From the NCBI GenBank assembly GCA_964016885.1, contig CAXHJY010000228.1, positions 30,001 to 94,000 on the forward strand: a stretch of 64,000 bases of DNA. Reading direction: 5' to 3'. This document shows, piece by piece, positions 1,165-64,000 of this stretch; within the stretch, counting starts at the first letter, position 1; each line of letters begins with the position of its first letter. Origin of the DNA: Eledone cirrhosa. Its lineage: Eukaryota. The notes below the pieces were generated by a model. That model had not been told where the DNA came from, ran no database searches, and saw nothing but the letters and a program-made list of their open reading frames with translations. The position numbers and the translations under genes were made by a program.

Positions 1165-1486
1165 ATAGTTATGTAATAAACAACATAAGGCAATTATTTC
1201 ATTTACCAGTGGTTTCTTAAAAGCAAAAAATCTTGCTTTCAATCATCAGAATGAAAAAATCCTGGCGTATTTATTGACGTTGGACCAACGTCAATAAATA
1301 CGCCAGGATTTTTTCATTCTGATGATTGAAAGCAACATTTTTTTGCTTTTAAGAAACCACTGGTAAATGAAATAATTGCCTTATGTTGTTTATTACATAA
1401 CTATTAAGCTTATTACATAACTATTAAGCTCTGTTACCTACATAGAGCACTCTTTTTTCCTGGACTTTTCCGGCGGAATTACTTCA
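1165..1486 (+). mobile_element. Fold-back PLE-like terminal fragment between (TA)n tracts
   Basis: ~119-bp inverted arms 1165-1283/1285-1404 with a 1-nt spacer; 20-bp tandem duplication 1391-1430; CATAGAGCAC motif at 1441. Confidence 0.65.
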
Positions 1487-2464
1487 TATATATATATATA
1501 TATATATATATATATATATATATATATATATAAATCTTCAGCCAGTCATGACAGATTATAAGATTATTTTTGCTATTTGTGAACACCTAAGAAACTCGAC
1601 ATGTCACGAAGTAATAAGGAAGCTGTAATGTAAATTTCAGCTAAATAATAAACAAATAAATATTATGCTTATAAAGAATCTGCCATATTAACTTGTGGTT
1701 GATTTAAATATAATTTAATTTCACTGATGACACAAGGATGGGAAACATTAGTATATAATTCCTTGCGTCAATACTCATATTATAATATATAGATACTTCT
1801 ATATACGAATATTGGAACTTAAGCAAGATTTTTCACTACTTTTGTTTTGTTTTTTTTTCTTTATATTTTTCTGTACATTTTTGTAGAAACGTGTATTAGA
1901 GGAATAAAATGCATTAATGTTTCATCTTTATTTGTGCATTATATATATATATATATATATATAAATATATATATATATATTGGGTACAATCGAATTGTTT
2001 GAGGCAGTCACAAAGCACTCAATGGTGTGAAAAGTGAATACGTTTTCACCTAGAGTAAACCCAAGAATAAACCGACCAAAAGCATGTTGCTATAGTAATA
2101 CAACAAACAGGCCGGACATTATCCTGGACCATCGCGAAAGGACATGAATCGATAGAAATCGATTCAAATCTTCGATAGGTTTCTGGGAATTCGGGAAGAT
2201 ACATCATGGGTTGCATAAAGTATATGTAAGCCATAGATGCATATATTGATGCAACAGGAATATCCCTTCGTCGGCAGATTTTCATTCCGGAATATCCGAC
2301 TTGGTCCGGTCGCTAGAAGACATTATGGCAGTCTACTTAGTAGTAAATTCGCCAGTGTCGTCCCATGACTTTTCTCAAAAAGTGGACGATCAAATAAAAT
2401 ATATATATATATACTCATATAAATTCGTTCGTTTTCTCCATATTTGTTATCAATATTTCTAACA

Positions 2465-2930
2465 AAACAGTCAATAATATATTTTCTTTCATTGTTCACG
2501 ACTTTTTGCCAACGTTCCACTAGCTTGTCAATGTCTCAAAGGTAGAAATTATTGAGCCTTTACTCGAAAAATTCGTAAAGCCACATTTCAGCTTCACGTC
2601 GTTGTTGAATGAAACTCTTAGCAGGCTGTTGGTGAGCGACCGGAAAAGGTGATAATTTGAAAGCGAAATATCAGGAGAAAACAATGAGTACTGTAGAATT
2701 TCCCAACCGTGTTCTTGAATAGCCATTTTATTAAATTTCCGACGTAAGTGCAAGCGTTGTTGTGTTGAAGAAGCACAATATATCCCGGTCTGTTTGTTTC
2801 AAGTGGATTGCCTTGTTGAGATGGTACATTTACTGAACGTAAAGCTCTGCATTGACTGTGTGATTGTTTTCAAGCATATAAAACATTGGGTTGGGGAAGC
2901 GAACGAATTTATTTATCTGACATCTCAATA
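2465..2930 (-). pseudogene. Decayed mariner transposase C-terminal fragment
   Basis: HGWEILQYSLFSPDISLSNYHLFRSL resembles YSPDLAPSDYHLF; ERWQKVVNN.. resembles the mariner C-terminus. Confidence 0.75.
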
Positions 2931-2989
2931 TTATATTAATATATATATATATATAAATATATATATAAATATATATATATATATATATA

Positions 2990-3080
2990 TCCACCACCCC
3001 GCACTCTCAAAAGCGTGAACCTAATAAACTCTTATTTGTACTGCCTCTCTGTTTTTGTTCCCGTCTAAGTTTTAACTATA
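2990..3080 (+). mobile_element. Short PLE-like 3' end between (TA)n tracts
   Basis: CACTCTCAA..GCGTGAA..CTAATAA..GTACTGCCTC shared with 29600-29700, which follows a hammerhead-like motif. Confidence 0.5.
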
Positions 3081-3710
3081 TATATATATATATATATATA
3101 TATATATATATATATATATATATATACATTACACATATCAACATAAATAAGGACACTAAACGCATACCTACAAAATCCATACAGGAATACATACATATGG
3201 TCAGGCAGCGGTAGATATATCTAGACATCTTTTTCTGTCAGCTGGTTAATAGATAAAGAGGCTAATGTTTCGAGACATTTAAGAAGAAAGCGATTTCTCA
3301 ACATCTGACAATTTATGTTGTCCACATTGAAAACAAATAAGCTGTTGGACCTCGAAGCTAAGTCAAATACTCATTCTAGTTTATCCCCAGGCGGCCATCT
3401 TTTCAGGCGAGGTAATAAATATGAAAATCATAGTTTGAGTCGGCTATAAAATATGACAGCAGAAATTCCAAGCTATTCTGTCACATTAACGAATAAAATA
3501 CCAACATTTAATGGCTAGTTACCTCTTGCGTGTCGAATGGGAAACTAAATGAAGTTCGTATTTTTTGTTGACTTCTTTGATTTTATGTTGTTGTTGTTAT
3601 TCTTTTTTTTGTTTTGTTTTTATTTATTTATTTACCACACCCTATATTGTTTCTCTCGACATACCGCGAATGAAAAGCTCCCCTTTCCACTATTTTCTAC
3701 CTCCTCCGCT

Positions 3711-60701: not shown

Positions 60702-60919
60702 TTGTCTCGTGGCCTTTTGATCGATCGATAAAAGGCCTTAGGCGCGCTGCTGATCGATTTCGATGTCCTGTTTTAAGCGCCGAAACATCTATGATCACAG
60801 TTAACAGCTGATGAAGGGTTTCTTCTTACGTCCATATTACTTTTGTTTACAGTAACCACACAACCCGCTACGTTTATTGTAATTTTGTATATATATATAT
60901 ATATATATATATATATATA

Positions 60920-62223
60920 CGAGGTGTGTCAGAAAAGTTCCAGGACTGATGTCACAAAAGATTTATTTCAAACCCAAACTTCACACTAAGAGTTTTCTCC
61001 TTCAAAGAGTCTAATGCACTTTTCCATCCTTTTCTGCCACGCTTGCATGAACTTCTGGAAGGATTCTTCCGGGATTCTCCGCAGTTCCGTCGTCACGGTC
61101 TTTTTGATGTAGTCCACGTTTTCAAAACGGGTCCCCTTGATGACCCCCTTGAGCTTGGGGAATAGAAAAAAATCACACGGGGCCAGGTCGGGGGAGTAGG
61201 GAGGTTGTTCCATCACGGCGATGTTCTTCTCGGCCAGGAACTGTCGGATGCTCAGGGCATTGTGAGCAGGCGCGTTGTCATGGGGAAGCAGCCACGAGTT
61301 GTCCTGCCACAACTCTCACGCACTCTTCTCACGCACTGAACGAAGCAAACGCTGCAGTATCTCTTTGTAGACATGTTGGTTGATTGTCTGGCACTGTGGC
61401 AAGAACTCGCAGTGGACGGTCCCCCTCACATCGAAGAATGTGATCAACATGAACTTGACTTTGGACTTCGACTGTCGTGCTTTCTTCGGCCTTGGCGACG
61501 ACGGACTCTTCCACTGAAGGCTCTGGCGTTTGGTTTCCTGGTCGTACTCGAAGATTCATGACTCATCACCGGTGATGACTGTCCCTAGCAAGTCCGGTTC
61601 GGTTTCAAGACGCTCGAGGATGTCCTGGCACACTTGCATGCGTCGACCCTTCTGGTCATCGTTCAGATTTTTTATCACCATCTTCGCGCAGACTTTCCGC
61701 ATGTCCAAATCTTCAGTGAGAATCTTCTAGACGCTGTCCCGATTCATGCCTAGCTCATTTGCCATCTGTCGAAGAGTCAGCCGACGATCGCTAGGCACCA
61801 TCTGCCTGACGCGCTCAACGTTGACCTCAGTCATGGTTGTTGAGGGCCTTCCGCTCCTGGGGTCATCTTCCACGTCCTCGCGTCCTTCTTTAAACCTCTT
61901 GCACCACTCAAAAACACGTGAGCGTGACATCGTCTCATCTCCATACACTTGCTGCAGCAATCCCAGTGCTTCTGACGGAGTTTTCCCCAACCGTACCAGA
62001 AACTTCAAGTTTGTTCGTCGCTCTGTGCTCATTGCTTAACGACCTGAAACAGAGGATATGTATATAAAATTATGAAGAAAAAAGTTTGATCGCTGCAGAG
62101 AGCTATGATTACAGTTACATACTCCAGAGGTATTACTTTGAAGGAGAAAACTCTTAGTGTGAAGTTTGGGTTTGAAATAAATCTTTTGTGACATCAGTCC
62201 TGGAACTTTTCTGACACACCTCG
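60920..62223 (-). mobile_element. Mariner DNA transposon with ~88-bp TIRs and TA TSD
   Basis: TA|CGAGGTGTGTCAGAAAAG..CTTTTCTGACACACCTCG|TA. Confidence 0.95.
60986..62032 (-). pseudogene. Mariner transposase with premature stops
   Basis: DDPRSGRPST, ITGDES*, HDNAPAH, YSPDLAPCDFFLF; stops near 61727 and 61557. Confidence 0.92.
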
Positions 62224-63465
62224 TATGTGTGTGTGTGTGTGTGTGTGTGTGTGTGTGTGTGTGTGTGTGTGTGTGTGTGTGTGTGTAATTAACTTATATT
62301 TACACAACCAGGGCTTGTTTGTGTAAATATACATAATTGTTTTGTTAGTATAGTATTTTTGGCACAAAGCACACACACAACACACACACACCACACACAC
62401 AACACACACACACACCATACACACACACCACACACACACGCACACACACACCCCACACGCATACACGAATTGTTAATCAATACCATTAAACTAAATGATG
62501 CGTTCCAAATTCATACTTACACCCTTTTCGTGTAATTCACCTTTTTTTACACAGATGCGAGAAAACAGTCGGTAAAAACAAACCTTATTGTATACATGTT
62601 TTATTTCTATCATTCTTTTCGCATCTCCATTCTGTCCGCTGGGGCTGTGGGGAGGCCAGCCCGTGGGACTCCATTTGCTCACCATACGGAGAGATGGCGA
62701 GCGCGACAGAGATGGAGGCGGTGACAATGGGAGTTCGGCTCTTCCACGCTCGGACCATATCCTTGTGGTTGTGTTCATTAAGCAGTTAATGAGTATGTTT
62801 ATGCAGTGTTCTATTATATGTTTATGCAGTGTTCTATTATAACTATTGTTTAGAACACACATATCACGGTAACTAGGGATTTGATCAACTTGTCTCAATT
62901 TCTGTATGATTGTGGTCACAGTTTTCGACTTTTTTCTTATATTCCTATTATAATATTACTGTTTTATTCTTTTATTTCCAATGCCTCGTTCCACACTTTG
63001 TGTGGATTTTCTCGAATTGTCTATTATTTTATTGTCCGTCATTGTGTCTATTGAGATGAAAGTGGTCTATTTCTTTTAATAATTCTTTTTGTTACATGGT
63101 TTCTTTTTTTCTTTCACCTTTACAGCAATGAATCACGCCAAGGAATTATTCTTCATTGACTATTGTATAAATACTTCGTGGAAAAAAGTCCTTCCGCATG
63201 AACGGTTCACCACCTACGTCGTTATTAGTTATAGCTCCAAAACACACACACACGAATACAAACACACACATTTATATATATATATATATATATATATATA
63301 CACGCAGACATATGAAGATATATATATGTTTATATATATACATACATAGATGTGTGTATGCGTGTTTTTATTTATATATATATATATATATATATATATA
63401 TATATATATATATATATATATATAAAATATTTAAAAAATATTAAAAAAATTAAAAAATATTAATA

Positions 63466-63610
63466 TTATTTCTGAAGACGGCATATGTATGTGTTGGTAT
63501 GTATATTCTATTTGATAATTTGTATAATTTTGTATAATTTTGTACATAGATCTGTTGAGTATGCATGCCAATTCTAACACATATATGTCCTAGAAACGAT
63601 CGTTAAATAA
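63466..63610 (+). ncRNA. Long-stem-II hammerhead in a PLE-like 3' end (to ~63812)
   Basis: ttattt-CTGAAGA-cggcatatgtatgtgttgg..ctaacacatatatgtccta-GAAA-cgatcg-TT-aaataa. Confidence 0.7.
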
Positions 63611-64000
63611 TGAACTTTTTTTGTTTAATATAAGGAACTGTTTCATTGTTTTATTCATTATTTTTTTAATATTTTATCTTGACTCTGTATTCCGTTTATC
63701 TCTCACTGAAAGTGATTTTTGAATGCATCTCTTCTTTCCATGATATCCGGATTACATTGAGTTCTTCATACGGATTGGACACTACCGTAAACTTTTGGTA
63801 GATTTATCTACATATATATATATATATATATATATATAGAGAGAGAGAGAGAGAGAGAGAGAGAGTCGTTTTCAAATACGAAAACAGATAAAGGTAGGTG
63901 AAGAAATTTTTATCAGCTCAAAATACGAGATTTATTACAGTAAACTATTCATAAGGCTACATACAATTTTTAATACAATTCCTTAATACTAGTGTTTATG

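Follow-up and report, generated by a model that had tools for sequence, protein, structure and literature searches.

The window analysed in this work is a stretch of 64,000 nucleotides (nt) from the animal Eledone cirrhosa (assembly GCA_964016885.1, contig CAXHJY010000228.1, positions 30,001 to 94,000 of the forward strand), in which a preliminary description had noticed the motif YATNGAGYDC at eleven sites close to the 3’ ends of insertions in (TA)n microsatellites. We found that this motif constitutes the 3’ arm of a hairpin, RCUC-Y...R-[UN]-GAGY, that is bulged and shows covariation and that we relate to the Hydra clade of Penelope-like elements (PLEs). The hairpin is carried twice between the hammerhead and the ATG, copies end mostly 6 to 9 nt 5’ of it, and we consider it probable that it is a protein site that would set the start of target-primed reverse transcription.

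Within the hairpin, RCUC pairs with GAGY, the TN of the motif forms a two-base bulge, and YA pairs with the bases that follow RCUC; the unpaired bases after GAGY, which correspond to the DC of the motif, are conserved. The variable base of ATN, previously read as codon wobble, is in fact the second, free base of the bulge. A strict descriptor of this structure matches 8 of the 11 listed sites, and the other three (15711, 18150 and 53194) are decayed copies with intact relatives. Since the motif was derived from the window, it was tested on DNA from arbitrary places of the same 3.0 Gb genome, which we refer to as the held-out set and whose first 600 kb consist of 60 arbitrary stretches of 10 kb. 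In the held-out set, the descriptor finds 28 clusters, compared with 0 to 5 across ten shuffles, 2 to 5 when the first bulge base is other than U, and 3 to 5 for bulge lengths of 1, 3 or 4 nt; the second bulge base is free. Among the 28 representatives, 13 have a U-A pair adjoining the bulge and 9 a C-G pair there, and therefore the YA of the motif is only one of its forms. RNAalifold yields the same fold, with 4 of 7 pairs changing on both sides among rows chosen for pairing, and the C-G, U-A and C-G pairs do not vary across the 26 hairpins of the alignment, for which CTC/GAG had served as the selection criterion. Family I, one of the families described below (designated A to I and K), has U-A as its outer pair; the same compensatory change is present at the metagenome locus L387. 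The spacing between the two arms ranges from 12 to over 100 nt, with covariation. GAG ranks tenth in a control that covered all 64 stem triplets; base content was not normalised there, and the control is uninformative. A degenerate hammerhead cleavage site was also considered and ruled out, as the arms enclose no catalytic core and the second bulge base can be G. Rfam leaves the hairpin unmatched at five metagenome loci that carry it, reporting only Hammerhead_1 on the minus strand of L387, and in the window it reports no hairpin family among the best 150 of 180 matches, which are mostly repeat-driven microRNA models.

The pair of hairpins is also present in relatives outside this genome. An alignment of 37 proteins (36 of 118 relatives plus the protein of locus L233 of E. 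cirrhosa) was used to fetch 77 Hydra-type metagenome loci, 43 of them with a usable 5’ region, 35 with at least 120 nt of it, and 31 non-redundant. Sites were chosen by GAGM-D-C alone, that is, by position and with no pairing filter. Exactly two sites occur in 23 of the 31 non-redundant 5’ untranslated regions (UTRs), one site in 4 and none in 4. At 49 of 50 sites the base two positions ahead of GAG is U, the base following this position is free (U in 30, C in 12, A in 8), and a purine precedes the bulge in all 50. A paired 5’ arm is found at 35 of 50 sites compared with 8 of 170 in open reading frames (ORFs); two sites lack the arm, and in the 47 unfiltered sites that have it the pair beside the bulge is always Watson-Crick, and the next pair is so in 32, plus two G-U pairs. 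The order of these elements is hammerhead, about 45 to 80 nt, hairpin 1, hairpin 2, about 15 to 65 nt, and ATG; the two hairpins are 54 to 82 nt apart (median 64), and hammerhead cores are present in many of the elements. A model trained only on 26 metagenome hairpins recovers 5 of the 11 listed window sites at E < 0.02, together with 16138 and 18556, and misses the long-loop and decayed window sites. Inspection by eye of six published Hydra consensi reveals the hairpin in three, from coral and sea cucumber: Hydra-2_Amil, Hydra-2_Ajap, with one hairpin at the 3’ end, and Hydra-1_Ajap, with two in the 5’ UTR. In a non-systematic search of published Naiad, Chlamys and Hydra consensi, six 9-letter forms of the motif occur at 9 places, 3 of them in Hydra UTR hairpins and the other 6 with no evident hairpin. 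Mapping of ends inside the metagenome contigs gave four rows, one of them informative (-7, L329).

The occurrence of the motif had been described correctly at ten of the eleven sites (1441, 15711, 18150, 18354, 18993, 32272, 40631(-), 59075, 59663(-) and 63755), and the eleventh, 53194(-), has one mismatch, GAC for GAG. The distances to the repeat also agree with those reported once the 10 nt of the motif are added: measured from the motif end, nine sites lie at 29 to 49 nt and two at 70 and 84 nt, with the values for 18150 and 53194 (about 40 nt) judged by eye. The window holds 15 exact matches compared with 5.5 ± 2.6 in shuffles, none of 100 shuffles reaching 15, a test that is circular because the motif was drawn from the same window. 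Five of these matches had not been listed. Three of them, at 2024(-), 18556 and 32624(-), are 34 to 77 nt away from (TA)n; the other two, at 10486(-), within a LINE-like ORF, and 17545, are without a partner arm and probably due to chance.

The positional enrichment anticipated by the preliminary description is confirmed in the first 600 kb of the held-out set, in which 42 of 65 motif matches lie 25 to 100 nt upstream of (TA)n compared with 9.2% of background positions (p = 7e-28). At distances of 40 to 50 nt there are 26 matches upstream of (TA)n and 1 on the opposite side. Of 300 letter-permuted motifs, none reaches 42 matches upstream of (TA)n, the largest value being 35; the total count is not clearly enriched, as 11 of the 300 reach 65. 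When 970 kb were counted by family (1530 flanks in 816 clusters), the motif marks 15 clusters compared with 2.6 ± 1.9, the largest value being 13 and none of 500 permutations reaching 15. These held-out and family-level permutation controls exclude chance as the source of the motif. The families that carry it had been called unrelated, which is overstated: the eleven sites represent about eight families, with 18354 and 18993 in one family, and 32272 and 53194, as well as 40631 and 63755, visibly related. These families likely share a Hydra-clade ancestor.

The position of the hairpins coincides with the ends of the insertions. Copies end mostly 6 to 9 nt 5’ of hairpin 1, when they are tail-less, or of hairpin 2, when they carry a tail. 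Hairpin 2 directly follows the tailed end in all five families for which read-through copies exist (G, A, B, I and K), and therefore the fixed distance reported previously is the spacing between the two hairpins. Relative to hairpins 1 and 2, the modal ends are -7 and -9 in family G, -6/-7 and -6 in family A (its hairpin 1 ends being mapped on another copy), -9 and -9 in family B, and -6/-10 and -6 in family K; family I has modal ends of -8/-6 at hairpin 2 only, and families D and E of -8 and -6, respectively, at hairpin 1. Apparent ends at hairpin 1 in family I and peaks at 398-425 in family G were traced to TA-like stretches in the references and discarded as artefacts. At the junctions there is a TA-like overlap of 1 to 4 nt (3 to 4 nt at 9 of 12), and starts are not assignable to a single base because this overlap is partly built into the end calling.

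Head-to-head insertions follow a strict rule. From 154 such insertions, 124 could be classified, all of them with one tail-less and one tailed arm and none with two ends at hairpin 1 or two at hairpin 2. The same is true in the arbitrary stretches alone, with 21 of 21 classifiable pairs (28 pairs in all), and in family K, with all 16 classifiable pairs out of 29. Overall, each of 140 classifiable inverted insertions has one end of each kind. In the window itself, the inverted arms at 1168, 18295, 18891, 32106 and 58919 terminate 6 to 8 nt before reaching hairpin 1.

The two end points and the rule of one of each would be explained as follows. We infer that the protein of the Hydra element would bind each hairpin in the RNA and start target-primed reverse transcription just 5’ of it. 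The endonuclease would cut both (TA)n strands; one DNA end would prime at hairpin 2 and copy hairpin 1 as the tail, the other would prime at hairpin 1 and give the tail-less arm, and both cDNAs would be joined head to head. As the bound hairpin would lie 3’ of the start and remain uncopied, tailed copies would arise only from read-through RNA of tandem units, that is, of tandem pseudo-long terminal repeats (pLTRs). The start signal is thus likely 3’ of the start of reverse transcription, and not 40 to 57 nt before it. For the Poseidon element PAc, the single PLE studied biochemically, reverse transcription has been reported to start internally at two sites (+111-118), with RNA needed to +172, so that the RNA must extend about 55 nt further 3’ than the start, and with both strands extended (PMC11167929); these data would fit a binding site located 3’ of the start.

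Several observations weigh against this explanation. In family C the ends are spread over -7 to -15, and in family E there is a second peak at -17. Hairpin 2 was not seen for families D, E, C, F and H, which have no read-through copy, and family I has neither ends at hairpin 1 nor inverted pairs. Family D supplies 63 of the 124 classified pairs, and the loci of the family searches were chosen with tailed queries. Regarding the structure, the fixed part of the hairpin is small (4 bp plus 2 to 3 bp), it is present in the minimum-energy fold of only 15 of 32 representatives, and the reverse-complement control and a 0-nt bulge each still give 15 held-out clusters; these last two runs are not clean controls because the stem is self-complementary. 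The four metagenome 5’ UTRs out of 31 that are without a site count here, as do the consensi of Hydra-1_Amil, -1_Obim and -1_Crog (3 of 6), in which inspection by eye reveals no clear hairpin. Families A, B, C, E, F, H and I have no linked Hydra ORF in the loci fetched and were assigned by the common hairpin alone. Finally, the insertion ends could equally be set by cutting, and the data do not separate priming from cutting.

This last point is the basis of the alternative that survives best, which we nevertheless regard as unlikely. According to it, the hairpins act in DNA, in a single-stranded cDNA or integration intermediate, and the GIY-YIG endonuclease cuts a few bases 5’ of them, setting both ends. 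It agrees with the need of the tail for endonuclease recognition in Penelope of D. virilis (as summarised in PMC11167929) and with the tail having been ascribed to endonuclease-mediated resolution (PMC8557442). Moreover, G-U pairs in the upper stem are few (2 of 47 at position 2 and 6 of 47 at position 3), and the RNA form is for this reason not proven. Against it, the U-bulge geometry is conserved and matches a known RNA motif, and the ends of PAc are start sites of reverse transcription (PMC11167929). The arm spacing of 12 to over 100 nt with covariation excludes a double-stranded site. A second alternative, that the hairpins direct a cut of the RNA just 5’ of them and reverse transcription then begins at an ordinary RNA 3’ end, would account for sharp ends at a fixed offset, as expected from a measured cut, and seems to us less probable still. 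PAc starts internally on uncut RNA (PMC11167929), the strict rule of one end of each kind is easier to obtain with two starts on one intact RNA, and Rfam found no ribozyme at the hairpins of the five metagenome loci.

The preliminary description itself proposed that the motif is a cis-signal for the start of reverse transcription, acting as a ruler on a point 40 to 57 nt (or 80 to 90 nt) further 3’. The link to the start is supported and the ruler is not, as the junction lies 6 to 9 nt before an uncopied hairpin 2. The distance is indeed tight within a family (for example, 49 nt in 18 of 20 copies of family G), but it varies from 29 to 84 nt between families, it is the same as the gap to hairpin 2 in every case with read-through, and tail-less copies end 5’ of the motif; a ruler is very improbable. 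Its other proposal, that the motif encodes an I-E-(Y/F/H) peptide of the ORF start carried in the tail, deserves almost no credence: the wobble would fall at a third position and 22 of 37 held-out contexts leave the I-E-x frame open downstream, but the next frame is open in 21 of the 37, no residues flanking I-E-x are conserved in these contexts, just 9 of 50 metagenome sites are in frame with the ATG, and the aligned proteins begin without any such peptide. In family G, to which the site at 63755 belongs, 24 copies from the 30 loci examined have both the motif and the ATG, and in 20 of them the motif precedes the ATG by 209 to 212 nt. A stop codon lies in between, and the open frame starts just 51 nt before the ATG. 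The peptide is thus refuted for family G and for the metagenome elements, barring an unseen spliced exon.

Returning to hairpins bound by protein in RNA, their core resembles the arginine-sandwich motifs of HIV-1 TAR and 7SK RNA. In TAR, the motif is formed by A22, U23, G26, A27-U38 and G28-C37, where U23 joins A27-U38 in a triple and G26 and G28 are contacted by arginines, and 7SK ASM3 has a 2-nt UU bulge (PMC6189040). The Hydra hairpin likewise has a purine, a bulged U and then G-C, A-U and G-C pairs, in a match of secondary structure only; its 2-nt bulge is like that of ASM3, and a rarer variant with a 1-nt bulge preceded by C (L144, L082) parallels C62 and U63 of ASM4 (PMC6189040). A bulged pyrimidine followed by G-C and A-U is present (U in 49 of 50 sites), as is a Watson-Crick pair just before the bulge in 47 of 47, with the purine on the bulge side. 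By analogy, a U.A-U triple and an arginine sandwich would be expected at the bulge, and this would be why the second bulge base is free whereas the first is fixed, together with both G’s and the A. Unlike in TAR and 7SK (PMC6189040), the closing loop of the Hydra hairpin is on the opposite side, and sequence and function are unrelated, so that convergence is assumed. Candidate arginines are R35 and R37 of an RxRW motif, with R in 76% and 89% of the 37 aligned proteins; they sit in a predicted helix, unlike the extended peptide of Tat. The best PDB match of the predicted Hydra protein model is TERT (E 3.6e-10, TM 0.36), and a homodimer prediction of residues 1-480, made without an alignment, gave no verdict (score 0.00). 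It is possible, and we propose it only tentatively, that two protein units on twin hairpins of TAR/7SK type, evolved independently, in one RNA would prime both (TA)n strands and give a concerted inverted insertion by a reverse transcriptase that is sister to telomerase.

As for the identity of the elements, the sequence of family G indicates that it is an autonomous Hydra-clade PLE. Of its copies, 19 of 20 end in (TA)n and one (L008) reads through into the ORF. Many are intact, some in tandem arrays of about 6.67 kb; at L233 and L234 (C1:183.74 Mb and C6:49.53 Mb), arrays of intact elements have about 4 kb of non-coding sequence per 6.67-kb unit. The ORF (L233) encodes 813 amino acids with an RWR N-terminal motif, not GxKF/Y, DKT in place of DKG and, as read from the sequence, a C-terminal GIY-YIG domain and a CxCx5C linker without CCHH; a Pfam scan of three proteins gave no family. 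The Hydra clade of PLEs with C-terminal endonuclease has been described with RW[KR], DKT, CxCx5C, a C-terminal GIY-YIG, (TA)n targets, pLTRs, an inverted arm and a one-sided tail (PMC8557442). Family G differs from it in its unit of about 6.67 kb with a long 3’ region, outside the tendency of the clade to stay below 3 kb, and in having no canonical hammerhead core by pattern (L233/L234), cores being found in families A and E. The many intact 830-codon frames genome-wide suggest recent activity. A Hydra ORF is also linked to family K, to the family of L144 with the 1-nt bulge, and, at one locus only, to family D; the family of L144, in whose hairpin a C stands before the single bulged U, also includes L082, L264 and L266. 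Families B and I look non-autonomous. Family I (59585-59950(-) in the window; L177, L187) is a non-coding tandem repeat of roughly 570 to 620 nt with both hairpins, similar to a retrozyme passenger, and no inverted copies of it were seen. Family K (L389-L423; about 18215-18255 in the window) has a hammerhead-like core with CAGAAGA instead of CUGANGA. In a Neptune/Nematis-type family of the same genome, the hairpin with a UN bulge occurs in 0 of 35, 12, 8 and 6 flanks of four clusters assigned by eye, and not at L065. This family (L065, L003, L027, downstream of the endonuclease; about 15290-15400 and 33590-33870 in the window) is abundant and has hammerhead cores, several end points and another conserved hairpin with a GCAA tetraloop.

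In the window, hairpin 1 of family A is at 1428..1448(+), with its 5’ arm at 1428, a 3-bp upper stem, a UA bulge and GAGC (model E 0.0003). The tailed end lies at about 1485(+), and the inverted tail-less arm, at 1168..1283(-), ends 6 nt before the hairpin. A hammerhead-like core matches by pattern upstream, at 1319..1365(+), with no Rfam report among the best 150 of 180 window matches. Hairpin 1 of family B (15682..15718(+)) has its bulge-adjacent pair broken here and intact in relatives, and that of family C (18107..18157(+)) has a 5’ arm mutated here and intact in most relatives. Family D has two copies of hairpin 1, at 18338..18361(+) and 18977..19000(+), and its inverted arms at 18295 and 18891, respectively, each end 8 nt before the hairpin. 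In family E (32261..32279(+)), there is an inverted arm at 32106 whose end lies 6 nt before hairpin 1 and which contains a hammerhead core by pattern match at 32143-32165(-); a decayed hairpin 1 of a relative of this family is found at 53185..53205(-), with L079 as the intact relative. Long loops characterise hairpin 1 of family F at 40624..40706(-), found by descriptor, of the related family G at 63682..63762(+), with a tailed end at about 63811, 9 nt before the hairpin 2 of read-through copies, and of family H at 59011..59082(+), which has a 6-bp upper stem and an inverted arm at 58919 ending 7 nt before. Hairpin 1 of family I is at 59656..59681(-), hairpin 2 being found in read-through copies. 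The hairpins absent from the original list are a decayed hairpin 1 at 2017..2056(-), a weak model match (E 3.6) that the strict descriptor does not find; a further bulged hairpin at 16142..16163(+), about 30 nt before (ACAT)n (model E 0.0014); a hairpin 1 with a UG bulge at 18536..18563(+), found by descriptor and model; and a hairpin at 32617..32637(-), found by descriptor (model E 0.5).

Other features of the window are a satellite array of about 110 copies of 47-nt units (22527-27689), a degenerate telomere-like (TTAGGG)n tract (21446-21633), an apparently intact two-ORF long interspersed nuclear element (LINE) of 593 and 1153 codons, stop to stop (47623-52866(-)), and a LINE with endonuclease and reverse transcriptase frames (8312-11400(-)), which contains the motif match at 10486. 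Two fragments, at 60986-62035(-) and 2520-2798(-), we take from their translations to be of Mariner/Tc1-like transposases.

Structured RNA sites that position a reverse transcriptase are known from the 3’ UTR of R2 and from the template-boundary element of telomerase, and in the twin priming of L1 two priming events lead to an inversion. Unlike these signals, the putative Hydra site sits 3’ of the start, is missing from the copy that it initiates, and is doubled. The available text on the Hydra clade ascribes the tail to endonuclease resolution and describes no conserved hairpin (PMC8557442). Poseidon PAc is similar in its two start sites bounding the tail, the extension of both strands and the RNA needed 3’ of the start, and differs in that it starts inside the ORF and that the available text defines no binding element; the PAc RNA of Fig. 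S1 has no CUC/GAG stem by eye (PMC11167929). Around its starts, two GGCC...GCC stems about 43 nt apart are seen by eye (PMC11167929 supplement 1). It is possible that Poseidon carries its own twin element. Non-LTR retrozymes resemble family I in being non-coding tandem repeats, and family I has the same twin hairpins as the Hydra elements, a signal of which the available text on retrozymes makes no mention (PMC7229834; bioRxiv 10.64898/2026.07.22.740005). No description of twin hairpins was found in the available literature, including PMC8557442, PMC11167929, PMC4209133, PMC7229834 and the 2026 retrozyme preprint; subscription journals and supplements may bear on this. The hairpin is a real cis-element of a known clade, conserved and, as it seems, unpublished.

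According to the available accounts, how PLEs choose an internal start of reverse transcription, why they carry a one-sided tail of 30 to 40 nt and why they need tandem pLTRs are open questions in the field (PMC11167929, PMC8557442). The twin hairpin, with its fixed offset to both ends, offers one answer to all three, and it points to the precise bases that could be mutated in an assay already available for a related element. It is also usable as a marker for Hydra-clade elements and their non-coding passengers. If the proposed mechanism is true, the 20-nt hairpin would be a portable tag that sets the start of reverse transcription anywhere in an RNA, and if the TAR-like fold is also true, it would represent a third natural use of the arginine sandwich, on an enzyme related to telomerase.

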